Origin: an uncultured Bacilli bacterium
Lineage (GTDB): Bacteria > Bacillota_I > Bacilli_A > RF39 > UBA660
Length of the DNA: 64,000 nucleotides
Reading direction: 5' to 3'
NCBI GenBank assembly: GCA_934097105.1
Contig: CAKONI010000001.1
Coordinates: 74,144-138,143 of the forward strand
A program made the translations under genes and the position numbers. Every line of letters starts with the position of its first letter. Positions within the stretch are counted from its first letter, which is position 1. Positions 2,471 through 36,626 of this stretch are shown here, piece after piece. A model generated the notes under the pieces. It was not told where the DNA came from and ran no database searches. It worked only from the letters and a program-made list of their open reading frames with translations.

Positions 2471-2542
2471 CTCTTTTAAATCGTTTGTAGTATAGCATAT
2501 TTTTTTTATTTTAACAATAGAAAAGGTATTTATGTAATATTT

Positions 2543-2576
2543 AAAAAATCTACACTTAAGAAAGATTGTGTAGATC
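2543..2576 (-). terminator. Rho-independent terminator downstream of the ABC exporter gene
   Basis: Perfect 8-bp stem ATCTACAC/GTGTAGAT (2548-2555 / 2568-2575) followed on the minus strand by a T6 run (A-run 2543-2548 on plus). Confidence 0.6.
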
Positions 2577-2727
2577 TTTATTTAAAGGATTATTCCTATT
2601 ATAATAACTATTAATGTGATTGCTAAGAAAGCGATTATTTCTTTTTTGAGAATTGCTTTATATTTTTGATATTCTTATTTCTATTTCTTTATTCATGGTA
2701 AATCCTCCTGGAAAAGAAGTTTGTTTT

Positions 2728-4410
2728 TTAATTTTTATATAAGGTTTTATATTTCTCATTTGTTTTTATTAATTTGTTATGGGAACCTGTTGCTACTACT
2801 GTTCCTTTTTCTAATAGATATATTTTGTCTGAATCTATTATAGTTGATAGTCTGTGCGCTATTGTTATTATTGTGTGATCTTTTGATACTTTTTGGATTT
2901 GTTCTTGTATTTCTTTTTGTGTAATATTGTCTAGTGCTGAGGTTGCTTCATCGAATAGAATTATTTTACTTTGCTTTAAAATTGCTCTTGCAATGGCTAG
3001 TCTTTGTCTTTGACCTCCGGATAGATTTATTCCGCCTTCTTCTAGTAGCGTGTTATATCCTTCTGGTAGGCTTTCTATATAATTATGAATTTGTGCTTGT
3101 TTACAAGCTTCTTTCATTTCTTTGTCTGTTATTTTTCTATCTATTAATTTTAGATTTTCTTTTATTGTTAAGTTAAATATATAAGGATTTTGAGTTATTA
3201 TTGATATGTTATTTCTTAATGAATCTTCAGTTAAATCTTTTATATCTATATCGTCTATTGTTATTTTTCCTGTGTAATTATCATATGTTTTGGTTAATAG
3301 ATTAAATATTGTACTTTTTCCACTGCCACTTTTTCCTACGAGTGCAATGTTTTGATTTTCTTTTATTTCTAGTGATATATTTTTTAATACTTTTGTTTTT
3401 GTATAGGCGAAACTTACATTTTCAAATTTTATATTTCCTTTTGGATTTTTTAGGGTTTTTTTACCATATTTTTCTACAGGGTATTTTTCTTCGTTAAATA
3501 GTTCTTTTATTCTTTCTTTGGCTACTTTATAGTTTACTAAATACTCTTTTAGGGATGTGTAACTTAATACTAATCCAAAGATGTTTGTTTTATACATAAA
3601 TATTATTAGAAATCCTGTTAGGGTTATTTGATTTATTTTTATTAGATATATTCCCATTGCTAGGACTGCGAATGTTATTATTGCTTGCATTACTTCTGTT
3701 GTACTGTAAATTGATATTCTTAAGTCTGATGATTTGGTTTCTAATTTATTTCTTTTATCTAATGAGTCTCCGGCAATGTTTGTAAATTTTTTTGTTATGT
3801 TTAATAATTTTATGTCTTTTATGCCTTTTAGGACTTCATTTAGTATTGTTCCGTTTTTATCAGCGGTTTGCATTATTTCTTTATTTACTTTTTCATATTT
3901 TTTATAGGCTGCTTTTTCATATACGTATATTATTATTAATCCTAGTAAGAAGACTAGTCCTATGTAGATGTTTAGGAAAAATACATATATTAACATTGCT
4001 AGTTCTTTTATCATTGAGAACATGCTATACTGAACTATGTTAAATACATCATTTATGGCATTTGGATCTGTTTTTATTCTTTCTTGAAAATAGCCTGATG
4101 ATGTTTTATCGAAGTTTGTTGCTTTCATTTTGAATATTTGTTTTAGCATGTCTAGTCTGATGTTGTATAGAAGACTTTCTCTTATTTTCATTGATGAGTG
4201 ATTACTTATTTTACCTAGTACTGATTTTATTATTGTTATTAGTAATAGTGATAGAGAGAATGTAAATGCTAATTTTATATTTAACTTTGTTAGGTTTGTT
4301 AAAATATTAGCGTTTATTACTGGTATTAATACACTTATTGCTGTTGTTAGTAGTAATAGTATTGTATAAATTATTATTTTTGATTTTATTTTTGATAGAT
4401 ATTTTTTCAT
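2728..4410 (-). CDS. ABC exporter, fused permease/ATPase half-transporter (MsbA/bacteriocin-exporter type)
   Basis: 560 aa with an N-terminal six-helix TMD followed by an NBD carrying Walker A GKSGSGKST, signature LSGGQRQR and Walker B ILFDEATSALD. Confidence 0.85.
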   Translation of the reverse strand: MKKYLSKIKSKIIIYTILLLLTTAISVLIPVINANILTNLTKLNIKLAFTFSLSLLLITIIKSVLGKISNHSSMKIRESLLYNIRLDMLKQIFKMKATNFDKTSSGYFQERIKTDPNAINDVFNIVQYSMFSMIKELAMLIYVFFLNIYIGLVFLLGLIIIYVYEKAAYKKYEKVNKEIMQTADKNGTILNEVLKGIKDIKLLNITKKFTNIAGDSLDKRNKLETKSSDLRISIYSTTEVMQAIITFAVLAMGIYLIKINQITLTGFLIIFMYKTNIFGLVLSYTSLKEYLVNYKVAKERIKELFNEEKYPVEKYGKKTLKNPKGNIKFENVSFAYTKTKVLKNISLEIKENQNIALVGKSGSGKSTIFNLLTKTYDNYTGKITIDDIDIKDLTEDSLRNNISIITQNPYIFNLTIKENLKLIDRKITDKEMKEACKQAQIHNYIESLPEGYNTLLEEGGINLSGGQRQRLAIARAILKQSKIILFDEATSALDNITQKEIQEQIQKVSKDHTIITIAHRLSTIIDSDKIYLLEKGTVVATGSHNKLIKTNEKYKTLYKN

Positions 4411-7917: not shown

Positions 7918-8072
7918 CTTATTAACAAAATTAATGTTTATTAACATCACAATTTTAACAATTGTTAATACTGTTAACAAAAAATTTGTTGAAATTTGTT
8001 GAAAAGTATTTTATAGTATATAAACAAAGGAAATTATATGTTAAAAACTTTGTTAATAAGTTTGTTAATAAA
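7918..8072. promoter_or_regulatory. Cluster of TTATTAACA / TGTTAATAA boxes upstream of dnaA (candidate DnaA-box variant; oriC left half and dnaA promoter)
   Basis: CTTATTAACA at 7918-7927, TTTATTAACA at 7937-7946, TGTTAATAC at 7963-7971, TGTTAATAAG at 8051-8060 and TGTTAATAAA at 8063-8072. Confidence 0.55.
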
Positions 8073-8154: not shown

Positions 8155-9537
8155 ATGGATAACAATTCTTTATGGCATAAAGTCCTTGATAATATTAGTA
8201 ATATAGTTGACCCTTTGTCATATAGAACCTGGTTTGAAAATATTGATTTTATTGATATTAAAGATGATTCTATTAGGTTAGTTGTTCCGGTTGTTTTGTA
8301 TAAAAATCATTTGGATAGAAATTATCGGGATATTATTTTGGAAGCGTTTAATAACTTATTAACAAAACCTGTTGATAACATAATTTATGTTTTAAAAGAA
8401 AATTTAGAAGACTTATTAAGTATTGAAAATAAGAATTGTTCTAATGAGAAATTTGATAATAGAGTTTTAGATGATGAATCTTTTGTTAATCATGTTTCTA
8501 ATTTAAAAAAAGACTATACTTTTGATTCTTTTGTAGTAGGAGAGTCTAATAAATTTGCTCAGGCGGCGGCGATGGCTGTTGCGGAAAATCCTGGTACTAT
8601 GTATAATCCTTTATTTATATATGGTAATAGTGGACTTGGTAAAACTCATTTGATGCATGCAATTGGTAATTATATTGAACAAAGGCATAAGAAAAAGGTT
8701 TTGTATGTTACTAGTGATGATTTTATGAATGATTTTACTGGTTTAATTAGAAAGAGTAATAATGATAATAATCTTAATTATATAGAGTTTTTTAAGAACA
8801 AATATAGAAATGTTGATGTTTTAATTATTGATGATATTCAATTTTTAGGGGGTGCTGAGAAGACTCAACAAGAATTTTTTCATACTTTTAATAACTTATA
8901 TAATGATAGTAAGCAAATTATTGTTTCTTCTGATAGGAGTCCTGAGGATTTAAAGGTTCTTGAGGATAGACTTAGAACTAGATTTGCATGGGGGCTTCAG
9001 GTTGATATTAGTCCTCCGGAGTTTAATCTTAAGGTTGCTATTATTAAGAAGATATTAAGAAGAGAAGATGTTAAATTAAATGATGATGTTATTTGTTATA
9101 TTGCTTCGAATGTTGGTAATGATGTAAGACAACTTGAGGGTGCTCTTACTAGACTTATTGCATATTCAGCAATTATGTGTGTTAGTAATATTACTGTTGA
9201 TTTTGCAATGGAGGCTTTAAAAGATTTTACTAAGAAAGACTTTATTACAGATCAAAATGATATTAGAAGAATTCAGAAAAATGTTGCTAGTTTTTATAAA
9301 ATTTCCTTTGAGGATATGAAGTCTAAAAAGAGGACTCCTAATCTTGCTATTCCTAGACAAGTTGCTATGTATTTGTGTAGAAAACTTACTGATGAATCTT
9401 TTGAGAGAATTGGTATTGAGTTTTCTGGAAAAAATCACGCTACTGTGATTCACGCTTGTAATAAAATTGAAAAAGAGATGGAAAGTAATAAAGATTTGAG
9501 GGATGCAATTGAGGATATAAAGAAGCAATTAACATAA
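8155..9537 (+). CDS. dnaA: Chromosomal replication initiator protein DnaA
   Basis: 460 aa with Walker A GNSGLGKTHL, Walker B LIIDDIQF and C-terminal domain IV (IPRQVAMYLCRKLT...GGKNHATVIHA). RBS GGGGAG. Confidence 0.98.
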   Translation: MDNNSLWHKVLDNISNIVDPLSYRTWFENIDFIDIKDDSIRLVVPVVLYKNHLDRNYRDIILEAFNNLLTKPVDNIIYVLKENLEDLLSIENKNCSNEKFDNRVLDDESFVNHVSNLKKDYTFDSFVVGESNKFAQAAAMAVAENPGTMYNPLFIYGNSGLGKTHLMHAIGNYIEQRHKKKVLYVTSDDFMNDFTGLIRKSNNDNNLNYIEFFKNKYRNVDVLIIDDIQFLGGAEKTQQEFFHTFNNLYNDSKQIIVSSDRSPEDLKVLEDRLRTRFAWGLQVDISPPEFNLKVAIIKKILRREDVKLNDDVICYIASNVGNDVRQLEGALTRLIAYSAIMCVSNITVDFAMEALKDFTKKDFITDQNDIRRIQKNVASFYKISFEDMKSKKRTPNLAIPRQVAMYLCRKLTDESFERIGIEFSGKNHATVIHACNKIEKEMESNKDLRDAIEDIKKQLT

Positions 9538-9549
9538 AAATGTTAAAAC

Positions 9550-9665
9550 TGTTAATAGTTATTAACAAGATATTTTATAAAAAAGTACTGATACATATAG
9601 AAAAAATGAGTTATTAACAATATTAACAGTAATAATATAAATAATAATATAAATATAAAAGAAAG
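9550..9665. promoter_or_regulatory. dnaA-dnaN spacer: box cluster plus AT-rich tract (candidate oriC right half / DUE)
   Basis: TGTTAATAG at 9550-9558 abuts TTATTAACA at 9559-9567, followed by TTATTAACA at 9611-9619 and ATATTAACA at 9620-9628. Then comes a pure A/T run of TAA/TAT triplets (gtaataatataaataataatataaatataaaag) at 9629-9665. Confidence 0.5.
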
Positions 9666-10924: not shown

Positions 10925-11383
10925 ATGAAATATGAAATTAATGATGAGACTTTGGCTATTATTCCTTATTCTGATACTAAAACTAAGGTAATTGAGGTTA
11001 ATGATGAGTATGTAGTGGATTCTACTCCATATTCTATTATGGAACATAGTTGTGAGTATTTTGGAAGTTCACTTATGGGGAGAGTTAATGGTACAAGAAG
11101 TATTTTAGGTAGTATTTATAAAACACCTATTTTTGTTGAGGAATCGAAAAAACTTATTTTTTTTCCTACTGAGGCTATTGATTCTGCTAATGTTAGTTGG
11201 GTTTCTTACAGGAATATTAGTAATGTTGAGAAATTTAATAACAAATCTATTGTTAAATTTAATAATGGGAGTGTTGTAATTATTGATTGTCCTTATTTTT
11301 CTATTAGGAATCAAATTTTTAGGTGTAATATGCTTGAGTCTATTTCAAATTCTAGAAAATTAAGTGTTAAAAAAGACGATTAA
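10925..11383 (+). CDS. ComK-family (competence transcription factor-like) protein
   Basis: 152 aa. The segment LAIIPY...KVIE...YVVDSTPYSIMEHSCEYFGSSLMGRVNGT...YKTPIFVEESKKLIFFPT...NVSWVSY parallels B. subtilis ComK (IAVLPE...KIIE...PLQIVDRSCRFFGSSYAGRKAGT...HKPPIMVDPSNQIFLFPT...CGWISH). Confidence 0.55.
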   Translation: MKYEINDETLAIIPYSDTKTKVIEVNDEYVVDSTPYSIMEHSCEYFGSSLMGRVNGTRSILGSIYKTPIFVEESKKLIFFPTEAIDSANVSWVSYRNISNVEKFNNKSIVKFNNGSVVIIDCPYFSIRNQIFRCNMLESISNSRKLSVKKDD

Positions 11384-14524: not shown

Positions 14525-16975
14525 ATGGAAGAGTTTAAAGATAGATTAGAAGAGAATAATATTGTCAATGAGATTGAGAATTCTTTTCTTGAGTATTCGA
14601 TGAGTGTTATTATTTCAAGAGCACTTCCTGATTTACGTGATGGTTTGAAGCCGGTTCATCGTAGAATTTTGTATTCTATGTATGAGTCTGGGTATACTCC
14701 TGATAAGCCTCATAAGAAGAGTGCTAGAATTGTTGGGGATGTTATGGGTAAGTATCATCCTCATGGGGATTCGAGTATTTATGATGCTATGGTAAGAATG
14801 GCACAGGATTTTAATTATAGGTATATGCTTGTTGATGGACATGGTAATTTTGGTAATATTGAGGGTTATGGCGCTGCAGCGATGCGTTATACTGAGTCTA
14901 GACTTTCTAAGATTTCTTTGGAACTTCTTAGAGATATTAACAAAAATACTGTTGATTTTGTTGATAACTTTGATGAATCTGAGAAAGAACCACAAATTTT
15001 ACCGTCTAGGTTTCCTAATATTCTGGTTAATGGTACGATGGGAATTGCTGTTGGTATGGCTACTAATATACCGCCTCATAATTTAGGAGAGGTTATTGAT
15101 GGTTGTGTTGCTTATATTGATAACAATGATATTACTGTCGCTGAACTTATGAATTATATTAAGGGCCCTGATTTTTCAACTGGTGCGATTATTTTGGGTA
15201 ATAGTGGTATTAGAAAGGCTTATGAAACAGGTAAGGGTAGTATTACTATAAGGAGTAAGGCTACTATTGTTGAAAAACATGGTAGGCAGTATATTGTTAT
15301 TGATGAGGTTCCTTATGGTGTTAATACGTCAGAACTTAAGAATAAGGTTGCTGAACTTGTTCATAATAAGGTAATTGATGGTATTTCTGATTATCATACT
15401 GATTTGAAAGAGGGAATTAAGATTACTATTACTTTGAAGAGGGATGCTAATGCTCAAATTGTTCTTAATAATTTGTATAAGCATACTCAGTTTCAAACTA
15501 ATTATGGTATTAACTTTTTGATGCTTGATAATGGTGTTCCTAAGAGTTTGGGTCTTAAGGATATTATTTCTAAGTATATTGATTATCAAAAGGAGATTAT
15601 TTATAGAAGAACTAAATTTGATTTAGATAAGGCTGAGAAAAGGGTTCATATATTAGAGGGTTTGAAGATTGCTCTTGATAATATTGATGAAATTATTAAA
15701 CTTTTGAAGGCTGCGAAGAATGATGATGTTGCTAGGGAAGGTTTGATGAGCAGATTTAGTCTTTCTGAAGCGCAGGCTAATGCTATTTTGGAAATGAAAC
15801 TTAGACGTTTGACTGGTTTGGAAAGAGAAAAAATTGAGAATGAACTTAATGAACTTTTGGAAAAGATTAAGGAGTATAGAGAAATTCTTGCTTCTGTTGA
15901 GAGAGTTTTGGCTATTATTAGGGAAGAACTTTTGGAAATTAAACAGAAGTATGCTGATGAGAGACGTACTGATATTGATATGACTGCTATTGATTATATT
16001 GAGGATGAATCTTTGATTCCTAATGATAAAGTCATGGTATCATTGACTAATAACGGATATATCAAACGTTTGTGTGTTGATACTTATAAATCTCAAAACC
16101 GTGGTGGTGTTGGAATTAAGGGTATGTCTGTTAATGAGGAGGATTTTGCTAAATTGTTAATAACTTGTAATTCTCATGATTATTTGTTGTTCTTTAGTAA
16201 TTTTGGCAAGGTTTATAGAGTTAAGTGTTATGAGATACCAGAATTTTCTAGGCAATCTAAGGGTGTACCTATTGTTAATATCTTACCTTTGGATAAGGAT
16301 GAGGTTGTTAATACTATTATTTCTGTTTCTAAGGATGATGAGTGTAGGTATTTGATGTTCTTCACGAAGTGTGGATTAGTTAAGCGTACGGATATTAATG
16401 AGTTTGATTCGATTCGTAAGGGAGGAAAGATTGCTATTGGTCTTAAGGAGAATGATCAACTTATTAGTGTTAAGAAGACTAATGGCGATGATGAGGTTAT
16501 AATTGCTTCTAATTCTGGACGTATGGTTAGATTTAATGAGAATGAGGTTCGTATTATGGGACGTAGTGCTTCTGGTGTTAAGGGTATTGAACTTGGCTCT
16601 TCACTTGTTATTGGTGCGGAGGTTGTTGATAAGTCTCAACTTGTTCTTGTCGTTACGGAAAAGGGTTATGGTAAGAAGACTGAGGTTGATGAATATAGGC
16701 TTACTCATAGAGGAAGTAAGGGCGTTAAGGCTTTGAATGTTACGGATAAGAATGGTTTGATTATTGGATTTAAGTCTGTTGTAGGTGACGAGGATATTAT
16801 TATTACTACTGATAGTGGTGTTGTAATTCGTTTGGATGTGTCTAAGGTATCTACTTTAAGACGTAATACTCAAGGAGTTAGATTAATGCATTTGAAGGAT
16901 CATCAAAAGGTTACTTCTGTAACTGTTACTGATAAGGCTGATGAGGATGAGCCTGCTGTAGAAGAGGAACACTAG
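14525..16975 (+). CDS. gyrA: DNA gyrase subunit A
   Basis: 816 aa with the QRDR region [13 protein letters not shown], the catalytic Tyr context [10 protein letters not shown] and C-terminal beta-pinwheel repeats. Confidence 0.98.
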
Positions 16976-16992
16976 ATAGTGTTCTTTTTTTT
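16965..16992 (+). terminator. Rho-independent terminator overlapping the gyrA stop codon
   Basis: Stem GAACAC/GTGTTC (16967-16972 / 16979-16984), a 6-nt loop containing the TAG stop, and a T8 run. Confidence 0.65.
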
Positions 16993-17014
16993 GGCAGAAA
17001 ATGGATTTTTATTA

Positions 17015-17030
17015 TGTTTCACGTGAAACA
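17015..17030. promoter_or_regulatory. parS site 1 (ParB/Spo0J binding)
   Basis: TGTTTCACGTGAAACA is a perfect 16-bp palindrome matching the Firmicute parS consensus. Confidence 0.85.
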
Positions 17031-17183
17031 TTTTTGAATAGCATTTTATAATGTTAAATATGTTTATTATTTTTAGAATAATTTTCTGTTGTTAATAAGT
17101 GTTAATAAGTATATTTTTCTGTTGTTTTTTACTAGGAAATTTAATTATTATAAATTTGTTATGTTTATTTTAAAGTTGATAAT

Positions 17184-17199
17184 GGTTTCACGTGAAACG
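17184..17199. promoter_or_regulatory. parS site 2
   Basis: GGTTTCACGTGAAACG; the central 14 bp are a perfect palindrome and both outer positions deviate from consensus. Confidence 0.7.
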
Positions 17200-17437
17200 T
17201 TTTAAAGTAGTTTGAAGTTATATATGTTTTTTCAAATTATTTTAGTTGTTGATTATTGTTAATAAGTTATTATTTCACATTTTATTTAGTATTTTTGTTT
17301 TTATTTTAATATTATAGTGATTTATATTTGCAAATTGGTTATTTATTTTGTAGTTGTATTTATGTTGAAATCTTTAATTGTTAGTGCATTTCATTTTAAT
17401 TCTACAGTTTTATTCGATTATTTGGCATGTTATTGTA

Positions 17438-17453
17438 TGTTTCACGTGAAACG
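17438..17453. promoter_or_regulatory. parS site 3
   Basis: TGTTTCACGTGAAACG, 15/16 to the palindromic consensus. Confidence 0.8.
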
Positions 17454-17679
17454 TTGTTATAAGCAATTACTTTATATGTTAGAAGTTTTGACTGTTATAT
17501 ATTCTATCTTTTTTTATTGTAGCCAAATGTTAATAAGTGTTGATAACTTATTTTGACTTTAATAATTGTTTTTTTAATTAGTATAATTATGAGATATTTG
17601 ATTAGTAATAGTTTATTTAGAAATGAATAAAAAATGTGTATTAAATACTTTTATGTTAATAGTTATAAAGAATAATAGA

Positions 17680-17695
17680 TGTTTCACGTGAAACA
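17680..17695. promoter_or_regulatory. parS site 4
   Basis: TGTTTCACGTGAAACA, 16/16. Confidence 0.85.
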
Positions 17696-17841
17696 TTCTA
17701 ATATAATATGTAACTATAGGTATATTTTTTTATAGAGGGTTTAATATTTGTGAATGGATTATTTATCTTATAGTTGTATTTATATTAAAAACTTTAATTG
17801 TTAATAATTACTTTTATTTAATTATTTAATTTTTTATTGTA

Positions 17842-17857
17842 TGTTTCACGTGGAACA
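17842..17857. promoter_or_regulatory. parS site 5
   Basis: TGTTTCACGTGGAACA, 15/16; the G variant is also found in known parS sites. Confidence 0.8.
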
Positions 17858-18119
17858 TTTAATTGTTTTGCATTTTAAAGTGTGTATTTTGCATAAGTAC
17901 GGTTGTAGAATTATTTTATATATTAATTTATGTTGAAAATAAGAATTTTTAATTTATATTATTTTTTTTTGTATTAGTATATTTATTATGTTTTTTTATA
18001 AAAAATAATGATTAGTTTTTGCTTATGATTGTTAAATTGTTTATAGTTAGAGATAATTTTTTAATTGTTAATAAGTATTTTCATTTATTTTATATTTATT
18101 CCAATTTTTGGTAAAAAAA

Positions 18120-18135
18120 TATTTCCCGGGAAATA
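18120..18135. promoter_or_regulatory. Noc-binding site (NBS) 1
   Basis: TATTTCCCGGGAAATA is a perfect palindrome equal to the published B. subtilis NBS core ATTTCCCGGGAAAT. It lies within a 35-bp direct repeat (18101-18135). Confidence 0.75.
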
Positions 18136-18317
18136 ATTGTAAATTTTGTAATTATTTGGATTTATAGATAAATATGTTTTTGTTAATAAGTTTTTTTATG
18201 TATGTTGTTATTATTTTGTTTAGTATTATTATTAATAGTTTTTAAGTTTTATAATTAATGGATTTGAATGTTGTAAGGTTATAATTTTTGTTATTGTTAA
18301 TTTTTATGAGAAAAAAA

Positions 18318-18346
18318 TTGACTTTTTTGTTATTTTATTTTATTAT
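18318..18346 (+). promoter_or_regulatory. sigma-A-type promoter of ffs
   Basis: TTGACT (18318-18323), 17-nt spacer, TATTAT (18341-18346). Confidence 0.55.
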
Positions 18347-18352
18347 TTTTTT

Positions 18353-18432
18353 GTGCAACACATATGGTTGAAACAGGTCAGGATCGGAAGATAGCAGCCT
18401 TAAGATCCTCTGTGTGTGTGCACTTTTTTTTT
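18353..18432 (+). ncRNA. ffs: Signal recognition particle RNA, short 4.5S-like form
   Basis: ACAGGTCAGGATCGGAAGATAGCAGCC matches the domain IV core AGGUCAGGUCCGGAAGGAAGCAGCC, with a compensatory AUC/GAU stem around the GGAA tetraloop. The 5' GUGCAACACA pairs with the 3' UGUGUGUGCAC, and it ends in a U9 run. Confidence 0.85.
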
Positions 18433-18467
18433 AGAATAATTTATTTTAATATTTGTGGAGGGTCTTT

Positions 18468-18887
18468 ATGGATAATATGTTTATGACTTTGGCGGTTGAA
18501 CAAGCAAAGATTGCATTGGAGCGTAATGAGGTGCCAGTGGGGGCAGTTATTGTTAAAAATGGAGAGGTTTTATTTTCTTCTTATAATAAAAAAAACCTTG
18601 AGAATGTTGCTGTTTTTCATGCTGAAATTTTGTGTATTATTGGTGCTTGTAAAAAACTAAATTCTTGGCATTTGGATGGATGTGAATTGTATGTTACTTT
18701 GAAACCATGTGACATGTGTTTATATGCTCTTGCTGAGGCTAGAGTTAGTTCAGTTTATTATTTGCTGGATAATAATTATAATGAAAATTTAAGTTCCAAT
18801 TATAATAAAATTGAATGTACTTTAATTCCTGATATTTACAAATATAGTACACTTTTGGGAGATTTTTTTAGTGATTTGAGAAAATAG
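18468..18887 (+). CDS. tadA: tRNA-specific adenosine deaminase TadA
   Basis: Zinc motifs HAE(ILCI) and PCDMC. I chose the ATG at 18468, which follows GGAGGG. Confidence 0.9.
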   Translation: MDNMFMTLAVEQAKIALERNEVPVGAVIVKNGEVLFSSYNKKNLENVAVFHAEILCIIGACKKLNSWHLDGCELYVTLKPCDMCLYALAEARVSSVYYLLDNNYNENLSSNYNKIECTLIPDIYKYSTLLGDFFSDLRK

Positions 18888-18891
18888 TATA

Positions 18892-18907
18892 TGTTTCACG
18901 TGAAACA
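18892..18907. promoter_or_regulatory. parS site 6
   Basis: TGTTTCACGTGAAACA, 16/16, located 5 nt after the tadA stop. Confidence 0.85.
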
Positions 18908-18933
18908 AAAATTACCAATTTTTGGTAAAAAAA

Positions 18934-18949
18934 TATTTCCCGGGAAATA
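18934..18949. promoter_or_regulatory. Noc-binding site (NBS) 2
   Basis: TATTTCCCGGGAAATA; the palindrome extends to AATATTTCCCGGGAAATATT. It lies within the second copy of the 35-bp repeat (18915-18949). Confidence 0.75.
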
Positions 18950-19068
18950 TTTTGCTATTTTTGGTAAAAATTGGTAATTATTTATTTTTGGAATATTTCT
19001 TTTTTTATTGTTTGTTTTTTTTCTTTGTGTTACAATATTTTTATTGTTTGTGAATGTGGGGTGTTATT

Positions 19069-20694
19069 TTGGATTATATTGCTTTGTATAGAAAGTATAG
19101 ACCTAAATCTTTTGATGAGGTATTTGGACAAAAATATGTTGTTGATATTTTGAAGAAGAGTATTGTTAATAATAGAATTTTTCATGCTTATTTGTTTTCT
19201 GGACCTAGAGGTACTGGTAAGACTACTATGGCTAAGTTATTTGCAAAACTTATTAATTGTGAAAATTTGAATGGTTATTTGGCTTGCAATGAATGTAATA
19301 GTTGTAAACTTATTAATGAAAAGGTTGATGCTGATATTATTGAAATTGATGCTGCTTCGAATAATGGCGTTGATGAGATTAGGAATATTTGTGATAAGGC
19401 GTCTTTACTTCCTAGTGTTTCTAAGTATAAGGTTTATATAATAGATGAGGTACATATGCTTTCTATTAGCGCTTTTAATGCATTGCTTAAAACTTTGGAG
19501 GAGCCTCCTAAACATGTTGTTTTTATTTTGGCTACAACGGAAATTCATAAAATTCCTGAGACTATTGTGTCTCGTTGTCAATGTTTTAATTTTGAAAGGT
19601 TATCTAATTCTGATGTTGTTGATTGCTTAAAGCATATTTCTGATAAGGAGAATTTTTCTATTTCTGATGAGGTGTTTAATATGATTTCTTCTTATTGTGG
19701 TGGGTGTATGCGTGATTCTATAGGTTTATTAGAAAAGTTATCTTTTTGTTCAGGTCCTGTTGATGCGAATGCTTTTAATGATGTTGTTGGTTTAGTTGAT
19801 ACTGATTTTTTATTGTCATTTATTAAAAGCATGTTTGAAAAAAATATATCTTCTGTTTTAGATTTGATTGACGATTTACAGAAATCTGGAAAAAATTTGA
19901 ATAATTTTGTTGTTCAAGTTATGAATTATATAAAGAAGTTGTTGATTGCTGATGATTGTATTTATAATAAGCGAGATTTAATTGATATTTTTTCTGGGTT
20001 TAATGATATTTTTTCTGATATGAAAAATTCTAGTAACGTATTTTTGTGTTTTCAGGCTGGAATTTTAAGAATTATTAATTCTCTTGATAATAATACTCGA
20101 AATGTTAATAATGATGTTGATGATAATGTTTTGAGTAAATCAGATGATAAGATTGAGCATGGAGATGTTAATAATGATAGTGATGATGTGGGTGAAGACA
20201 TCTCTACTGATAAGAAGATTACTGTTATAGACTTTTCTGATACTATTAATAATGCTTTTGCTCTTGCTGACAAATCTCTTAAGAATAATATTGTTTCTAA
20301 GTGGAATGGTTTTTATAATTATGTTCATAATAAAGAATTTTCTTCAGTTGTTTCGCTTTTGCTTGATGCTGAAGTTAGGGTAGTTGGTGAAAAGGATGTT
20401 ATATTATCGTCTGGGTATGATTCTGTTGTTGAAGGTGCGATTAGGAATATTGCTAAAGTAGAACTTTTGTTTAATTTGGTTATGGGAAAGTTTTACAATA
20501 TTGCTTTCATTCTTGATAATGAATGGGAAAAATATAAAGATAAATATATTTCTGATATTAAAAATGGAAAAATGTACAAATATAGGGAACATTTTTCTTC
20601 GAATGATGGTATAATTAGTAATGATGATGTTGCTTCAGATATTGTTAGTTCTGCTAAAGATATTTTTGGTGATGACATTGTTGAAATAAAATGA
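19069..20694 (+). CDS. dnaX: DNA polymerase III subunits gamma/tau
   Basis: YIALYRKYRPKSFDEV, Walker A GPRGTGKTT and a clamp-loader fold. I prefer the TTG at 19069 (GGGGTG 6 nt upstream) over the ORF-track ATG at 19054. Confidence 0.93.
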   Translation: MDYIALYRKYRPKSFDEVFGQKYVVDILKKSIVNNRIFHAYLFSGPRGTGKTTMAKLFAKLINCENLNGYLACNECNSCKLINEKVDADIIEIDAASNNGVDEIRNICDKASLLPSVSKYKVYIIDEVHMLSISAFNALLKTLEEPPKHVVFILATTEIHKIPETIVSRCQCFNFERLSNSDVVDCLKHISDKENFSISDEVFNMISSYCGGCMRDSIGLLEKLSFCSGPVDANAFNDVVGLVDTDFLLSFIKSMFEKNISSVLDLIDDLQKSGKNLNNFVVQVMNYIKKLLIADDCIYNKRDLIDIFSGFNDIFSDMKNSSNVFLCFQAGILRIINSLDNNTRNVNNDVDDNVLSKSDDKIEHGDVNNDSDDVGEDISTDKKITVIDFSDTINNAFALADKSLKNNIVSKWNGFYNYVHNKEFSSVVSLLLDAEVRVVGEKDVILSSGYDSVVEGAIRNIAKVELLFNLVMGKFYNIAFILDNEWEKYKDKYISDIKNGKMYKYREHFSSNDGIISNDDVASDIVSSAKDIFGDDIVEIK

Positions 20695-27940: not shown

Positions 27941-27967
27941 TTTTTATTTTTATGGTATAATTTTCTA

Positions 27968-28168
27968 AATGCGATGAAAGAAGGTTAAAATAGTTATTAT
28001 TTTTTAGAGAGTTTGTGTTTGGTGGAAACAAATATTTAATGCTATTTGGTATGACTTCTGGAGTTTGGGATTTTCCCCGGTTTAATCCGTTATTTTAATG
28101 AGATACTTATGTATAAAATAAGGTGGTACCACGGAATATTTCGTCCTTAAGAAATGTTTCTTTTTTTA
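27968..28168 (+). promoter_or_regulatory. T-box leader (Met specifier) controlling metG
   Basis: AGAGAG box at about 28006, distal-loop GGTGGAAAC, candidate specifier GGT-ATG-A at about 28049-28054, T-box AAGGTGGTACCACGG at 28120-28134, and a terminator hairpin with a T-run ending at about 28167. Confidence 0.85.
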
Positions 28169-28197: not shown

Positions 28198-29706
28198 ATG
28201 AAAGATAAGTTTTATATTAGTACGCCTATTTATTATCCTAGTTCTAATTTTCATATTGGGCATTGCTATACTACTGTTATTGCTGATTCTATTGCTAGAT
28301 ATAAGAGACTTTGTGGATATGATGTTTATTTTCAAACTGGTACTGATGAACATGGACAAAAAATTGAGAATAAGGCTAGGGAAGCAGGTGTTTCTCCAAA
28401 AGAATATGTTGATGAAATTATTTTGAATGCTAAGGATTTGTGGAAATCTTTGAATATTACTTATGATTATTTTATTAGAACTACAGATTCTAATCATGTT
28501 GTAGCAGTTCAAAAAATATTTGAGAAATTGTATAATCAGGGAGATATTTATAAGGGAGACTATACAGGTCTTTATTGTACTCCTTGTGAGTCTTTTTGGA
28601 CTGAAAGTCAACTTGTTTCTGGAAAATGTCCAGATTGTGGTCGTGAGGTTCATATGATTAAAGAAGAGGCATATTTCTTTAAATTATCTAAATATGCTGA
28701 TAAATTGATTGATTTTTATGATAAACATCCAAATTTTTTACTTCCTGTTTCTAGAAAAAACGAAATGATTAATAATTTTATTAAACCTGGACTTCAAGAT
28801 CTATGTGTTTCTCGTACTAGTTTTAAGTGGGGAATTCCTGTTACTTTTGATCCAGATCATGTTATTTATGTTTGGATTGATGCGCTTACGAATTATATTA
28901 CTTCTTTGGGATATCCTGATAAATTGGATGATAAATTTGCCAGATATTGGCCATGTGATTTGCACTTGGTGGGTAAAGAAATTGTTAGGTTTCATGCAAT
29001 AATATGGCCATGCATTTTGATGGCGCTTAATTTACCACTTCCAAAACAGATTTTTGGACATGGCTGGCTTATTGTAGATGGTGGTAAGATTTCTAAGTCA
29101 TTAGGAAATTATAAGGATCCTAGAGAGTATATTAATGCTTATGGGGTTGATGCAGTTAGATATTTTGTATTAAGGGAAGTTCCACTTGGTAGTGATGGTA
29201 ATTTTAGTGAAGAGGCTTTAGTAAATCGTATTAATGGAGATCTTGCAAATGTACTTGGTAATTTAGTTAATCGAACTATTTCTATGGCTAATAAGTATTT
29301 CGATGGTAAGGTTTCTAATAAGAAAAGTTATGAAGAAGATCAGGAGTTTTTGAACTGTATTGGTTCTTTATGTGACAAGGTTGATGAATCAATGAATAAT
29401 TATGAAATTAGCGTTTGCTTGGGTAACATTTTTGATGTTTTAAGAAGAAGTAATAAATATGTTGATGAAACTATGCCTTGGGTTTTATATAAGAATAATG
29501 ATTTGGAAAGATTAGAGGCTGTTTTATATAATTTACTTTATTCTATAAAAGTTTGTACTACGTTTCTTAGACCTTTTATTCCTGATACTTGTGATGAAAT
29601 TTTTAAACAACTTAATTTAGATTTTATTAGTTTTGATGATGTTTATAATGAAACTAATTTTAATGTAGGAAAAGCTTCTATTTTGTTTGAAAGAGTAGAA
29701 AATTAG
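28198..29706 (+). CDS. metG: Methionine--tRNA ligase (short form without the C-terminal tRNA-binding domain)
   Basis: 502 aa with the HIGH-region NFHIGHCY and a KMSKS-equivalent GKISKSLGN. Confidence 0.97.
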   Translation: MKDKFYISTPIYYPSSNFHIGHCYTTVIADSIARYKRLCGYDVYFQTGTDEHGQKIENKAREAGVSPKEYVDEIILNAKDLWKSLNITYDYFIRTTDSNHVVAVQKIFEKLYNQGDIYKGDYTGLYCTPCESFWTESQLVSGKCPDCGREVHMIKEEAYFFKLSKYADKLIDFYDKHPNFLLPVSRKNEMINNFIKPGLQDLCVSRTSFKWGIPVTFDPDHVIYVWIDALTNYITSLGYPDKLDDKFARYWPCDLHLVGKEIVRFHAIIWPCILMALNLPLPKQIFGHGWLIVDGGKISKSLGNYKDPREYINAYGVDAVRYFVLREVPLGSDGNFSEEALVNRINGDLANVLGNLVNRTISMANKYFDGKVSNKKSYEEDQEFLNCIGSLCDKVDESMNNYEISVCLGNIFDVLRRSNKYVDETMPWVLYKNNDLERLEAVLYNLLYSIKVCTTFLRPFIPDTCDEIFKQLNLDFISFDDVYNETNFNVGKASILFERVEN

Positions 29707-30766: not shown

Positions 30767-30803
30767 ATGTGTTAGAATATTCTGTAATTGAGAGGTGAGT
30801 TTT

Positions 30804-31418
30804 TTGGCTAAGAGAAAGTTAAAAAAGAATTTAGGCAAAAAGATTATTTCCGGCATTTTATATGTGACAGGTGTTTTACTTATTTGTGCTGGTGTTATAG
30901 GAGTTATCAGTTTTGATGATAAAAAAATGACTAGTAATGAGAGTGAAAATAATAATTTAAATAAATATGTTTCAACTAAGGAACTTGTGGCAACTTTTAG
31001 AGAACTTAATAAAAAGAATATAAATCCTATTATGTATAGTAGTTTTGGCGCTGCTGTTTATAATTCACAGTTTTATCCTACTAGTTTTGTGGGAAAGTTG
31101 GTTCATTATGGACCGGATTGTCCAGAATGTGGTGGACATTTAGGTTGTAATGGGCAAGATGCAAGAAATGGGAATATATATTATAATGATAAAGAATATG
31201 GTAAGGTTCGTATAGTTGCAATGAGTAGTGACATACCTTGTGGAAGTATGATTAGGATAAATGTCGATGCTTATGATAAGGATGGAATGTATGCTATTGT
31301 ACTAGATAGAGGTGTTAGTGGTCCTATGGTGGATTTACTTAAGACTAGTGCTTCAGCTAGTTCACCTGTTAGAACTGTTAATAATGTTACTTTTGATATA
31401 TTAAGGTATGGATATTAA
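30804..31418 (+). CDS. Membrane-anchored 3D-domain (RlpA-like/DPBB) protein, YabE-like position
   Basis: N-terminal basic segment and TM helix, a Cys-rich insert GPDCPECGGHLGCNG, and a C-terminal VRIVAMSSDIPCGSMIRINV...AIVLDRGVSGPMVDLL resembling 3D domains. I prefer the TTG at 30804, which follows AGAGGTGA. Confidence 0.45.
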   Translation: MAKRKLKKNLGKKIISGILYVTGVLLICAGVIGVISFDDKKMTSNESENNNLNKYVSTKELVATFRELNKKNINPIMYSSFGAAVYNSQFYPTSFVGKLVHYGPDCPECGGHLGCNGQDARNGNIYYNDKEYGKVRIVAMSSDIPCGSMIRINVDAYDKDGMYAIVLDRGVSGPMVDLLKTSASASSPVRTVNNVTFDILRYGY

Positions 31419-31527
31419 GACTATTTTTTAGTCTTTTTATTTTGTAAATATGTGTAAAGTTTTTTATCTTTATTTCTGGGTTTATGTTTAATTTTTTTTT
31501 TTTTTTGGAAAAGTTAAAAAAAACGTA

Positions 31528-31556
31528 TTGATTTTTATTTTTTGTTATAGTATGAT
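31528..31556 (+). promoter_or_regulatory. Promoter of module 1 (class A1/B1 genes)
   Basis: TTGATT, 17-nt spacer, TATGAT. The block ATTGATTTTTATTTTTTGTTATAGTAT is repeated almost exactly at 33019-33045. Confidence 0.5.
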
Positions 31557-31579
31557 TGTTATAGTAAAGGAGGATTTAT

Positions 31580-32215
31580 ATGGAAAATAGAGATAACAGT
31601 CAAAATAGTCAAAAAAGAATAATTTTGGCAGTATTAGGTGTTGCTATTTTAGTAGTTGCAGTTGTAGGAATATCGTTTGCAGCGTATAGCAGTTCAAAAA
31701 CTGGTAATGTAAATAAAGTTTCTACCGGTACTATTATGTTTAGTTATGCTGAACCTACTAATGGTATTAATATTCAAAATGCTACTTCTGTTTCTGATGA
31801 TGTTGGTAAAGCTGATCAAACAAATAAGTTTGATTTTACGGTTACCACAACTACAACTAATGCTTTAACTATTCCTTATGTTATTACTTTAACAAAGGAT
31901 GCTAATAATACATTACCTGATGAAGCTGTTAATGTTTATTTAACAAAAGGTGCTGAGAATACAGTTGTCAGAGATGTTACAAGCGTTTCTAGTTTGCCTA
32001 ATTATACTAGAGGATCAGATACGACTAACACTAAGTTATTAGCAGATAAAGATACTGGTGCTGTTCATACTCATGGCGATGCTACTGCTGATAATACCAT
32101 TTCAACTAGTTATACATTTAGAATGTGGGTTAATAGTAGTGCTGCTTTATCTGGAGATACGGCACAAACTTTTAAAGCATTTATTAATGTTGATTCAACT
32201 GTTAATGCACAATAA
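31580..32215 (+). CDS. Secreted protein with SipW-cognate (TasA-type) signal peptide, class A copy 1
   Basis: 211 aa with a charged head, a TM helix and then VGISFA|AYSS. It has VSTGTIMFSY after the predicted cleavage site and a C-terminal YTFRMWVNSS...FKAFINVDS. It is a paralog of 33070..33690. Confidence 0.7.
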   Translation: MENRDNSQNSQKRIILAVLGVAILVVAVVGISFAAYSSSKTGNVNKVSTGTIMFSYAEPTNGINIQNATSVSDDVGKADQTNKFDFTVTTTTTNALTIPYVITLTKDANNTLPDEAVNVYLTKGAENTVVRDVTSVSSLPNYTRGSDTTNTKLLADKDTGAVHTHGDATADNTISTSYTFRMWVNSSAALSGDTAQTFKAFINVDSTVNAQ

Positions 32216-32244
32216 TTTGAAATTTAAGAAAGGAGAAAAAATAT

Positions 32245-32967
32245 ATGGAAGATAATAAAAAAACTTTAGTTCTTTCGATCATTGGTATATTAGTTTTAGT
32301 TATAGCTGTAGTTGGTGTTTCATTTGCTATGTTTAGTTTTTCTGGAACTGGTACAAAAGAGAATGTTATTACAACAGGTACTGTTAGTTTAGATTTTTCT
32401 ACTGTTGAAGAAGGAACAGAAACTAATGTTATTAATGTTGATAATCAGTATCCTATGGATGATACTAATGGTGTTAGTTTAGCAAATATTACAAAATCGA
32501 AGGCAGATTTTAGTGTTAAAGCTAAGTATGATGCTGATATGACAATTAATTATGAAGTTGGTATTGTAGATATTAATAAAACTGGTGATATAACTGAAGG
32601 TGCTGAAACTATTCCTGAAAAAAATGTTAAAGTTATTTTGATTAATTCTACTACTGGAGAGGCTGTAGTTGGTAGTAAAGTTGGTGAAACCTATACTGGC
32701 GTTACTGTAGAAAGTTTAGCAAGTAAAAAAGGTGCTAAAAATTTAATAACTAATTATTATTTGGCTGGTGGATCTTTTACTAAGGGTGACAATTCAGACA
32801 AATATGCAATTTATGCTTATTTAGATAAAGATTATCAATTACCTGTTGACGCTACTAAGTCAACTACTGATAATGCTGGTACAGTAACTAGAACTAATGA
32901 AAGTAAGAAAACTACTAAGAAAGCTGAATTTAGTTTTAAACTAGTTGTTAAAGCAGCTCAAGCTTAA
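32245..32967 (+). CDS. TasA/camelysin-like secreted protein with SipW-cognate signal peptide, class B copy 1
   Basis: 240 aa with VGVSFA|MFSFSG. TTGTVSLDF and INVDNQYPMDD echo TasA ASGTLDLS and VNLSNLKPGD. The C-terminal AEFSFKLVVKAAQ echoes TasA IKLQFSFEATQ. Confidence 0.7.
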   Translation: MEDNKKTLVLSIIGILVLVIAVVGVSFAMFSFSGTGTKENVITTGTVSLDFSTVEEGTETNVINVDNQYPMDDTNGVSLANITKSKADFSVKAKYDADMTINYEVGIVDINKTGDITEGAETIPEKNVKVILINSTTGEAVVGSKVGETYTGVTVESLASKKGAKNLITNYYLAGGSFTKGDNSDKYAIYAYLDKDYQLPVDATKSTTDNAGTVTRTNESKKTTKKAEFSFKLVVKAAQA

Positions 32968-32971
32968 TTTG

Positions 32972-32998
32972 AAGGATGCATTATGCATCTTTTTTTGT
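32972..32998 (+). terminator. Rho-independent terminator after module 1
   Basis: Stem AAGGATGCA/TGCATCTTT with a 3-nt loop, followed by a T-run. Confidence 0.6.
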
Positions 32999-33019
32999 TT
33001 GATTTAATATATAAAATTA

Positions 33020-33048
33020 TTGATTTTTATTTTTTCTTATTGTATTAT
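33020..33048 (+). promoter_or_regulatory. Promoter of module 2 (class A2/B2 genes)
   Basis: TTGATT, 17-nt spacer, TATTAT; a near-identical block to 31527-31553. Confidence 0.5.
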
Positions 33049-33069
33049 TAATATAGTGAGGAGGATTTA

Positions 33070-33690
33070 ATGAAAAAGATAGAAAATAATTATGGGAAAA
33101 TGTTACTTTCGGTTTTGGGTGTTACAATTCTTACTGTTGCTGTTATTGGAATATCATTTGCGGCGTATGCTGGAACTAAAACTAGTGAAGTAAATAAGAT
33201 TTCTACGGGTACTATTACTTTTAGTTATGCTGAACCTACTAATGGAATTACTTTAAATAATGCTGTTCCTGTTAGTGATAGTGTTGGTAAACAATTGAAT
33301 AACACTTTTGATTTTACGGTTAATACGACTACTACTAATGCTTTAACTATTCCTTATGTTGTTACAATGACTAAAGCAAGTGCAACAGAGGGAGAACTTT
33401 GGCTTTCTGATAGTGATGTTACTGTTTATGTAACAAAAAATAATGATGATGTTGCTCTTCCTGAGACTAAGGTTTCTGATCTTACTACTTTTGATAGAAA
33501 TGGTGATTCTAGTAATACAAAGTTATTGTTTGATTCTAGTCATATTCATAATTCTGATGTTACTAATAATACTATTTCTACAAATTATACATTTAGAATG
33601 TGGGTTAATCAATCTGCCAATTTAGATGGTGTTGATAGTCATGTCTATAAGGTCTTTATTAATGTTGATTCTGCTATTAAGGGACAATAG
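33070..33690 (+). CDS. Secreted protein with SipW-cognate signal peptide, class A copy 2
   Basis: 206 aa with IGISFA|AYAG, ISTGTITFSYAEPTNGI and YTFRMWVNQS...YKVFINVDS. By eye it is more than half identical to 31580..32215. Confidence 0.7.
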   Translation: MKKIENNYGKMLLSVLGVTILTVAVIGISFAAYAGTKTSEVNKISTGTITFSYAEPTNGITLNNAVPVSDSVGKQLNNTFDFTVNTTTTNALTIPYVVTMTKASATEGELWLSDSDVTVYVTKNNDDVALPETKVSDLTTFDRNGDSSNTKLLFDSSHIHNSDVTNNTISTNYTFRMWVNQSANLDGVDSHVYKVFINVDSAIKGQ

Positions 33691-33709
33691 TGGTTTGTAG
33701 GAGGATGTT

Positions 33710-34432
33710 ATGAAAAATAAAAGAAATTTGATGATTTCTGTCTTTGCTATATTGATTTTAATTGTAGTTGTAATTGGTGTTTCATTTGCTATATTTAGTT
33801 TTTCTGGGACTGGAACTAAGGAGAATGTTATAACTACTGGTGTTGTTTCTTTAAATTTTGATGATGTTGAGGGAAGTACTGTTTCAAAGACTATTAATGT
33901 TGATAATGAATATCCTATGGATGATACTAATGGTGTTAATATTGATAATGTTAAGGCTAAGGCTGATTTTACTGTTAAGGCTGACTATAATGCAAATATG
34001 ACTGTTAATTATGAAATTGGTATTACGGATATTAATGAAAATATTGCTGATGAAATGGAACAAATTAGTTCTAATTATGTAAAAGTTATATTATTTGATG
34101 GCTCTGGTAAGATTTTGCTTGGAAATGCAGTTGGCTCTAATTTTTCTGGTGTTACTGTTGATAGTTTGAAATCTGTTGCTGGGCCAAATGGTTTAATTAA
34201 TAATTATTATTTGGCAAGTGGTTCATTTACTAATATTAATAAATCTGAGAAATATACTATGTATGCTTATTTAGATAAAGATTATCAATTACCTGTTGAT
34301 TCTACTCAAACTACGACTGATAATGGTGGTACAGTTAGTAGAAATAATGATGATGCTACAAGCAAGAGTAAGAAGACTACTAAGAGGGCAGAATTTAATT
34401 TTAAATTATTTATAAAGGCTGCTCAAGTTTAA
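33710..34432 (+). CDS. TasA/camelysin-like secreted protein, class B copy 2
   Basis: 240 aa with IGVSFA|IFSFSGTGTKENVITTG, DKDYQLPVD and AEFNFKLFIKAAQV. It is a paralog of 32245..32967. Confidence 0.7.
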   Translation: MKNKRNLMISVFAILILIVVVIGVSFAIFSFSGTGTKENVITTGVVSLNFDDVEGSTVSKTINVDNEYPMDDTNGVNIDNVKAKADFTVKADYNANMTVNYEIGITDINENIADEMEQISSNYVKVILFDGSGKILLGNAVGSNFSGVTVDSLKSVAGPNGLINNYYLASGSFTNINKSEKYTMYAYLDKDYQLPVDSTQTTTDNGGTVSRNNDDATSKSKKTTKRAEFNFKLFIKAAQV

Positions 34433-34459
34433 AAATGTGCATATTTTGTACATTTTTTT
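34433..34459 (+). terminator. Rho-independent terminator after module 2
   Basis: Stem ATGTGCA/TGTACAT (one G-U pair), 5-nt loop, T7. Confidence 0.55.
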
Positions 34460-34555
34460 GTGTTAATGTAAATTAAGTATAAAATTATTTATATTTTTCT
34501 TTTAAATTTAATTTTTTTGTGATAATATATTAGTATAGGTATGATAGGTGATTAT

Positions 34556-35380: not shown

Positions 35381-35395
35381 AAGAGGTTGATAAAT

Positions 35396-36617: not shown

Positions 36618-36626
36618 GAGGTTATT

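Follow-up and report, generated by a model that had tools for sequence, protein, structure and literature searches.

A 64,000-nt stretch of DNA from an uncultured Bacilli bacterium (RF39; UBA660; contig CAKONI010000001.1, positions 74,144 to 138,143, hereafter the window) carries, downstream of gyrA, six parS sites, the sites of ParB/Spo0J-type partition proteins, set around the small signal recognition particle (SRP) RNA gene ffs and the tRNA adenosine deaminase gene tadA. Analysis of the window and of related genomes led us to propose that positions 17015-18949 are the centromere-like ParB loading region of this chromosome. We put the probability of this sequence-based reading at about 0.85, because the sites agree with the parS consensus, recur nowhere else within ~84 kb and keep their syntenic place in relatives, and because cognate ParA, ParB and Noc-type proteins are encoded in a conspecific.

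The window was searched for the 16-mer TGTTTCACGTGAAACA, the parS consensus given in PMC7383237, with up to two mismatches allowed. The results revealed exactly six matches, three of them 16/16, two 15/16 and one 14/16 (Table 1). They bear out the first-pass annotation of this DNA, which had reported six such 16-mers with the same coordinates and match counts and had placed five of them within 843 bp of a 1.37-kb gene-free spacer; copies 1 to 5 indeed occupy 843 bp (17015-17857) in the gyrA-ffs spacer, which is 1371 bp long. Because the mismatches of copies 2 and 3 fall only on the outermost positions 1 and 16, the 14-bp core GTTTCACGTGAAAC is perfect in five of the six copies, and the variant seen in copy 5 is the main unit of a tandem array in a relative (locus L049). 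By chance, 0.01 matches with up to two mismatches would be expected per window, and none of 100 dinucleotide-preserving shuffles reached six. No further parS was found in the 64-kb window even at up to three mismatches, nor, at up to two to three mismatches, in the ~20 kb further left that are covered by conspecific contigs, and the sites are thus unique within ~84 kb around dnaA. The distances between successive copies are irregular (169, 254, 242, 162 and 1050 bp). In two other conspecific assemblies the spacer is identical over 2078 bp; these assemblies show 3 and 10 single-nucleotide polymorphisms over the whole 8.4-kb locus, all of them outside the spacer.

The first-pass annotation had described an array of parS, which stood as far as the six sites are concerned; the array is not pure, and two perfect Noc-binding sites (NBS) and seven DnaA-box-like motifs had been overlooked. 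Along the spacer the three kinds of motif follow one another in the order P-D-D-P-D-P-D-P-D-P-D-N-D (P, parS; D, box; N, NBS). With the NBS consensus TATTTCCCGGGAAATA, taken from Jalal et al. (PMC7383237), the window was found to hold two perfect sites, against 0.36 matches expected by chance at up to three mismatches. Both lie inside the parS array in the ~84 kb of genome examined, and conspecific contigs showed none over ~20 kb to the left of the window. Each NBS is carried by one copy of a 47-nt repeat, and NBS2 lies between 25-nt inverted arms (18907-18931 and 18958-18982) that are 84% complementary. A small palindrome (ACCAATTTTTGGT / CCAATTTTTGG) precedes both NBS copies and may be a further protein site or structure.

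Table 1. Features of the proposed ParB loading region and of its surroundings (positions in the window)
Feature	Position	Strand	Remarks
TTATTAACA, four copies upstream of dnaA	7919, 7938, 8051, 8063 (7919-8071)		dnaA context
TTATTAACA, two copies in 139-bp dnaA-dnaN spacer	9559-9619	+	next to AT-rich stretch
gyrA	14525-16975	+	NCBIfam; left anchor of array, conserved in all relatives
gyrA-ffs spacer	16976-18346 (1371 bp)		GC 17%, gene-free; parS 1-5, NBS1, seven DnaA-box-like motifs
parS copy 1, TGTTTCACGTGAAACA	17015-17030		16/16; 39 nt past gyrA stop
TTATTAACA, two adjacent copies	17090-17098, 17100-17108	-	DnaA-box-like
parS copy 2, GGTTTCACGTGAAACG	17184-17199		14/16; 14-bp core perfect
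TTATTAACA	17257-17265	-	DnaA-box-like
Higher-order repeat (~410 bp, degenerate), first copy	17313-17455	+	ends in parS3
parS copy 3, TGTTTCACGTGAAACG	17438-17453		15/16; core perfect
TTATTAACA	17528-17536	-	DnaA-box-like; followed by TTATCAACA at 17538-17546
parS copy 4	17680-17695		16/16
Higher-order repeat, second copy	17733-17859	+	ends in parS5; 73-82% identity between copies
TTATTAACA	17799-17807	-	DnaA-box-like
parS copy 5, TGTTTCACGTGGAACA	17842-17857		15/16; one core change, A12G
TTATTAACA	18066-18074	-	DnaA-box-like
47-nt repeat CCAATTTTTGGTAAAAAAATATTTCCCGGGAAATA..., first copy	18101-18147	+	carries NBS1
NBS1, TATTTCCCGGGAAATA	18120-18135		16/16; in gyrA-ffs spacer
TTATTAACA	18181-18189	-	DnaA-box-like
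ffs, small SRP RNA gene	18347-18432	+	Rfam; embedded between array members
tadA, tRNA adenosine deaminase	18468-18887	+	NCBIfam; flanked by parS5/NBS1 and parS6/NBS2
parS copy 6	18892-18907		16/16; 4 nt past tadA stop, 146 nt ahead of dnaX
47-nt repeat, second copy	18915-18961	+	carries NBS2; 89% identity
NBS2	18934-18949		16/16; 26 nt past parS copy 6
dnaX	19054-20694		NCBIfam

Relatives were collected by a GyrA-based scan with one genome per species, which afforded 80 loci, all from uncultured gut Bacilli labelled Erysipelotrichaceae, Tenericutes, Candidatus Faecimonas, Onthousia or Coprovivens (closest GyrA identity, 84%). Within 2.5 kb downstream of gyrA these loci hold 284 parS sites (up to one mismatch), against 0 in the remaining 1.24 Mb. 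Two or more parS were present in 56 of 71 informative loci, with a median of 4 and a maximum of 12 per locus, and three further species of the same sub-clade (L321-L323) carry 6-8 each. The NBS of the relatives are likewise concentrated in the array zone, where 128 of 161 were located (0.85/kb, compared with 0.027/kb outside) and where 48 of the 71 informative loci have at least one. The commonest 9-mer shared among the spacers is the parS core (70/81), followed by the NBS core (~50/81). Many genomes have strict tandem units in which NBS alternates with parS, such as the eight 64-bp units of L049 (NBS, 10 bp, parS), with periods of 56, 62, 84 and 136 bp elsewhere; the gap between the two sites is 8-33 bp within such units and 26 bp at parS6/NBS2 of the window. 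Other genomes have parS-only arrays with 37-53-bp periods, for instance 11 units of ~53 bp in L066. Regular tandem units with one ParB site each were observed in L049, L046, L010, L022 and L066.

Furthermore, all 185,579 species genomes were scanned without bias for parS and NBS cores lying 9-39 bp apart, which afforded at least 120 stretches. All the matches listed come from the same kind of metagenome-assembled genome (MAG) and carry gyrA/tadA/dnaX/recR/SRP markers, which strongly suggests, judged by these matches, that parS-NBS adjacency is exclusive to this clade. Many relatives (L009, L013, L024, L027, L031, L035, L041 and L072-L078) also have a solitary, mostly perfect NBS ~6.5-8.4 kb after gyrA; in the window only a 3-mismatch match, at 39026, was found.

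We considered whether the 16-mers might be a neutral repeat, amplified locally by slippage or unequal crossing-over in AT-rich junk, or a functionless miniature mobile element. Traces of amplification are present: parS1, 3 and 5 share one set of flanks and parS2 and 4 another, which indicates that they derive from a degenerate ~410-bp duplication; perfect tandem arrays with copy numbers of 2 to 12 occur in relatives; and many MAG contigs break within the array. The array thus appears to grow and shrink by local duplication, as a degenerate ~410-bp repeat here and as strict 37-136-bp tandem units in relatives. However, the core is exactly the ParB consensus and its companion exactly the Noc consensus, and both are kept while unit length and flanks differ completely between genera. 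Moreover, the array occupies one syntenic locus, as the markers on the listed parS-NBS matches indicate, and the absence of copies elsewhere makes mobility unlikely. A purely neutral origin is, on this evidence, very improbable. The first-pass annotation had also raised the case of a repeat dispersed around the chromosome; the 16-mer does not recur in the remaining ~62 kb of the window or in the ~20 kb to its left, and the distribution of parS in the relatives speaks against dispersal there as well. Its description of the array as plasmid-centromere-like was right in part, fitting the strict tandem units of the relatives. It does not fit the window, where the spacing is irregular and Tandem Repeats Finder detected no regular tandem array of the kind that marks tandem plasmid-type centromeres.

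The cognate proteins were sought in conspecific contigs, which were reached through MnmG homologues in public assemblies that are 98-99% identical to MnmG of the window. Leftward on a conspecific 361-kb contig (L195/L320) lie rsmG and the genes for a 450-aa ParB-family protein, a 261-aa ParA and a 291-aa ParB, followed by mscS, beyond which the contig continues to rpsF-ssb-rpsR and dnaC. The noc-like gene (L195:12601-13953) is located ~0.1-1.5 kb, and parB ~2.4-3.2 kb, left of the first base of the window, the latter ~20 kb from the array. The expectation of the first-pass annotation that parB and noc/soj lie left of rsmG is therefore borne out in the conspecific. The other case that it had raised against itself, a genome without ParB, does not apply to the conspecific, which encodes a parS-type ParB, a ParA and a Noc-like paralogue. 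A tblastn search for ParB in the window and the gyrA loci gave no match, as expected from the extent of that DNA. With a cognate ParB and clade-wide conservation, the earlier identification of a dense intergenic array of ParB/Spo0J parS sites near dnaA is supported.

Four residue positions set the specificity for parS or NBS (Jalal et al., PMC7383237). At these positions the 291-aa ParB (GKSRSHITNILGVLHL...TMGHAR) has R, I, H and G, the parS type, and the 450-aa Noc-like protein (GKSQSAIANKLRLLNL...SERHAR) has Q, K, N and R, the NBS type, which is marked by residues such as Q173, K179 (K184) and R201; the GERR and ENLQR motifs are kept in both. The Noc-like protein scored 300.9 bits on the NCBIfam Noc model TIGR04285, just below the cut-off of 315. 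Ahead of its C-terminal domain, which is Noc-like, it carries a linker of ~230 aa that is Q/N/P-rich and of low complexity. It begins 16 residues ahead of PNRFQPR, with an in-frame stop 4 codons upstream of the ATG, and an N-terminal amphipathic membrane-targeting helix is absent from it. The same architecture with short N-termini was found in the relatives L081, L089 and L091 (385-516 aa). In Noc, such a helix is needed for membrane binding and nucleoid occlusion (bioRxiv 10.1101/2021.02.11.430593). Since the protein lacks the helix and has a long linker, its role may differ from classical nucleoid occlusion. Operons of the form noc(QKxR)-parA-parB(RMxG) are the rule throughout the clade, QK.R being predominant among its noc-like genes, and in several genomes parB and gyrA lie on one contig, ~15-20 kb apart. 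In relatives with parS-only arrays, parAB was found in a different context without rsmG.

The presence of this ParB also bears on the idea that the palindromes are operators of an unrelated transcription factor, or terminators of gyrA and tadA, that regulate ffs, tadA or dnaX. Their positions 39 nt past gyrA (parS1) and 4 nt past tadA (parS6) would suit such a role, and CACGTG-centred palindromes are used by other regulators. On the other side, no terminator-like structures were predicted at the palindromes, and an 8+8 palindrome without loop and without T-run would make a poor intrinsic terminator. The five spacer copies show no positional relation to any promoter, and a 16/16 parS match with a parS-type ParB encoded nearby makes another binder unnecessary. 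We therefore regard regulation by these palindromes as an explanation with very little to recommend it.

Besides parS and NBS, the 9-mer TTATTAACA is strongly overrepresented, with 30 copies in the window compared with 3.9 expected. Seven copies, all in one orientation, lie in the spacer (0.21 expected), and six lie in the non-coding DNA flanking dnaA (0.11 expected), with a seventh at 8356 inside dnaA; conspecific contigs, followed ~20 kb further left than the window, hold none there. The 9-mer differs from the canonical DnaA box by one fixed mismatch (C6 to A) and has T at the free position. Canonical boxes (TT[AT]TCCACA) are absent from the 64-kb window, and boxes matching TTATNCACA with one mismatch allowed do not form a cluster there. 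Apart from one in L002, canonical boxes are missing from L001-L003 and L321-L323 as well, and TTATTAACA stands in for them at dnaA in each genome whose dnaA region was covered (the window, L002 and L321-L323). Relatives at greater distance have canonical boxes on the flanks of dnaA and others in the post-gyrA spacer, some of them directly abutting parS.

DnaA contacts bases through six residues, R399, P423, D433, H434, T435 and H439 in E. coli numbering (PMC2533591, PMC7561715). Three of the six are changed (P423E, D433N and T435A) in exactly those genomes in which TTATTAACA has taken the place of canonical boxes, and this E/N/A signature was present in 117 of the 120 closest DnaA homologues (76-99% identity) in a collection of 5.8 billion proteins, the remaining three being unscored because the search pattern had no match in them. 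In B. subtilis and E. coli, as in 58 relatives at greater distance, these positions keep P/D/T(S). Because TTATTAACA co-varies with the altered contact residues, the seven spacer motifs are read as DnaA boxes, and a lineage-wide switch of DnaA-box specificity to TTATTAACA appears to have taken place. If so, DnaA with E/N/A and DnaA of relatives with canonical boxes should show reciprocal preference between TTATTAACA and TTATCCACA.

These boxes raise the question of whether the spacer is primarily a DnaA-binding cluster, serving titration in the manner of datA or of the clusters of DnaA boxes (DBCs) in B. subtilis or forming part of an origin, with parS as secondary passengers. The enrichment of the 9-mer in a single orientation, its presence around dnaA, the canonical boxes in the homologous spacer of distant relatives and the GC content of just 17% would all agree with such a role, and in B. 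subtilis the DBCs lie near the origin and act in synergy with Spo0J (PMC3245932). Against it, the array zones of the clade hold few boxes, and these without consistency (55 in 77 loci), whereas parS is near-universal there. GC skew does not switch at the spacer, being +0.42 to +0.46 on either flank, and the spacer was therefore rejected as a replication origin. We consider a primarily DnaA-binding spacer unlikely, although it is compatible with the centromere reading and differs from it in emphasis, not in identity. Across genera, a fixed distance between box and parS recurs only weakly, with offsets of +/-16-18 in no more than 4 loci each, and no claim is built on it.

Several points weigh against the centromere-like reading. 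The window ends inside rsmG, and ParB is known from conspecific contigs, not from the genome of the window itself. The array is irregular in this species, and the plasmid-like tandem picture fits relatives only. The DnaA-box identity of TTATTAACA is probable and rests on co-variation. Finally, GC and AT skew at third codon positions (GC3 and AT3) keeps its sign across dnaA in this sub-clade (the window, L195/L320 and L321-L323). To the right of dnaA the plus-strand genes have a GC3 skew of +0.5 to +0.9, and the minus-strand genes to its left, followed over ~28 kb, have one of -0.1 to -0.9, so that the plus strand is G/T-rich on both sides of dnaA. No switch was found within ~28 kb leftward, a stretch that includes rpsF-ssb-rpsR and dnaC. 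In ~40 relatives at greater distance, the sign changes at dnaA in the normal way. The active origin may thus lie elsewhere, or replication may be effectively one-directional through the dnaA region, and, as the skew does not switch at dnaA, the term origin-proximal rests here on gene neighbourhood only.

If the region is the centromere, ParB dimers would nucleate on each parS, bind cytidine triphosphate (CTP), close into sliding clamps and spread to the flanks, by analogy with B. subtilis and Caulobacter (nucleation, CTP binding, clamp closure and sliding at parS are reviewed in PMC7333895). Six loading sites within 1.9 kb would feed one large partition complex; ParA would move this complex, and SMC would probably be loaded by it. 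From what is known of Noc (bioRxiv 10.1101/2021.02.11.430593), the two NBS would serve to load the Noc-type paralogue as a CTP clamp, in the same spot as ParB. The seven TTATTAACA boxes would probably make the spacer a DnaA-binding cluster like the B. subtilis DBCs or E. coli datA and could couple segregation to the control of initiation. In B. subtilis, the origin-proximal DBCs act synergistically with Spo0J/Soj in restraining initiation (PMC3245932), and S. aureus Noc also restrains initiation (PMC5540599). By analogy, a combined segregation and initiation-control hub is plausible. More tentatively, the region could be a two-paralogue centromere, in which interleaved parS and NBS serve as neighbouring loading sites for ParB and a helix-less, linker-expanded Noc, with DnaA boxes added, and in which Noc has been re-purposed from nucleoid occlusion to the assembly or control of the origin-proximal partition complex. 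We consider this possible, though rather unlikely. For ParB clamps, a Noc re-purposed in this way could be a roadblock or a partner in co-condensation, or it could put a brake on DnaA, as S. aureus Noc is reported to do. Such a device, if real, would be a kind of bacterial centromere new to description.

The B. subtilis Spo0J-parS-Soj system shares with the present one the identical consensus TGTTTCACGTGAAACA, the parS-type ParB residues, the gene order rsmG-noc-parA-parB and the dnaA neighbourhood. The parS sites of B. subtilis are mostly inside genes, including spo0J itself. There are about ten of them, eight being oriC-proximal (PMC3245932), whereas here six lie within 1.9 kb of non-coding DNA and none in parB or between parB and the array. 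Across bacteria, parS numbers range from 1 to 20-23 sites, with four clustered in Pseudomonas aeruginosa and 20-23 in Streptomyces coelicolor and Listeria innocua (PMC7333895). Like those clusters, the present one offers several ParB loading sites near dnaA/oriC, in a copy number that varies between species. It differs in being packed much more tightly, with spacings of 162-254 bp here and periods as short as 37 bp in relatives, and in being wholly intergenic, fixed at gyrA-ffs-tadA throughout the clade and interleaved with NBS and DnaA-box motifs. Plasmid tandem centromeres, such as F sopC with its 12 x 43 bp, resemble the strict head-to-tail units of the relatives, which have one ParB site each. 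Unlike them, the present arrays are chromosomal, that of the window is irregular with only a degenerate higher-order repeat left, and many units in relatives add a second type of site, the NBS.

The Noc-NBS systems of Bacillus and Staphylococcus share the perfect TATTTCCCGGGAAATA, the Q/K/R recognition residues, the Noc-like C-terminal domain and the location of the gene by rsmG. In contrast to them, NBS are here concentrated beside parS and not scattered, and the protein lacks the membrane helix, has the long linker and scores just under the NCBIfam cut-off. DnaA-box clusters outside oriC (the B. subtilis DBCs, PMC3245932 and PMC2533591; E. coli datA) are likewise dense intergenic groups of 9-mers close to dnaA, and the DBCs have a functional interplay with Spo0J/Soj (PMC3245932). 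Here, however, the lineage variant TTATTAACA stands in place of TTATNCACA, the boxes alternate with parS, and no neighbouring gene is obviously regulated by them.

Origin-proximal parS clusters of variable copy number are already known (PMC7333895), and why parS sites cluster and vary in number is an open question in the field (PMC7333895). A prior description of interleaved parS/NBS arrays was not found in the library searched, which is incomplete. As far as these literature searches reach, the dense intergenic array fixed at gyrA-ffs-tadA, its interleaving with Noc sites, the helix-less Noc and the added DnaA boxes are undescribed. The clade offers a natural series, with 2-12 parS at a fixed locus in arrays that range from irregular to perfectly tandem, with or without Noc sites. 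As ParB and Noc are CTP-gated sliding clamps of distinct specificity, sites 8-33 bp apart would force an encounter between them. Whether the paralogues block each other, form mixed condensates or divide the labour between them is testable in vitro on short synthetic DNAs. The helix-less Noc and the concentration of its sites at the centromere suggest a function other than nucleoid occlusion.

In practical terms, the parS/NBS array is a systematic and frequent assembly break point in MAGs of the clade. Many contigs end 100-700 bp after gyrA, within the array (L004, L005, L014, L020, L022, L023, L028, L048, L062, L067 and L071, among others), and in the isolate RGIG5090 the other half of the array begins a different contig (L200).

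The gene order of the locus was established with NCBIfam and Rfam. A partial rsmG stands at the left edge of the window, followed by the minus-strand genes left of dnaA, namely mnmG, an ABC transporter gene, mnmE, jag, yidC and rnpA. Rightward follow dnaA (8155-9537), dnaN, a 152-aa open reading frame (ORF), recF, gyrB, gyrA, the spacer, the SRP RNA gene, tadA, dnaX, ybaB and recR. A likely ffs promoter, TTGACT-17-TATTAT at 18318-18346, is the sole convincing promoter in the stretch, and an Rfam search of the spacer for hidden RNA genes detected the SRP RNA only. The only ORF in the spacer (17317-17556, 79 aa) had no family match and was treated as spurious.

The 152-aa ORF between dnaN and recF (10925-11383) had no NCBIfam match in the window, and the records of the ORFs at the same position in L321-L323 list Pfam ComK (PF06338). 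This slot is usually occupied by yaaA/rlbA, and a ComK-like occupant is unusual. The mnmE-mnmG interval is variable as well: it holds an MsbA-like ABC transporter gene in the window (2471-4410), an extra CYTH-domain gene and a 313-aa ORF in the conspecific L195 (6503-9880), and an added TraG/VirD4-like coupling protein gene and AraC-type regulator gene in sister species (L321, 2719-6205), the last two looking like a mobile-element remnant. Between tatD and ksgA/rsmA (30795-37840), ten consecutive ORFs of 177-279 aa have no Pfam match. Five of them are mutually paralogous (24-60% identity) and have an N-terminal membrane anchor or signal-like segment, and an SMYPT motif in the ORF at 35387-36031 recalls type I signal peptidases, possibly of a SipW/TasA-like cluster. 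The gene metG (28198-29706) is preceded by an ordinary T-box leader (27965-28151; Rfam RF00230, 95 bits).

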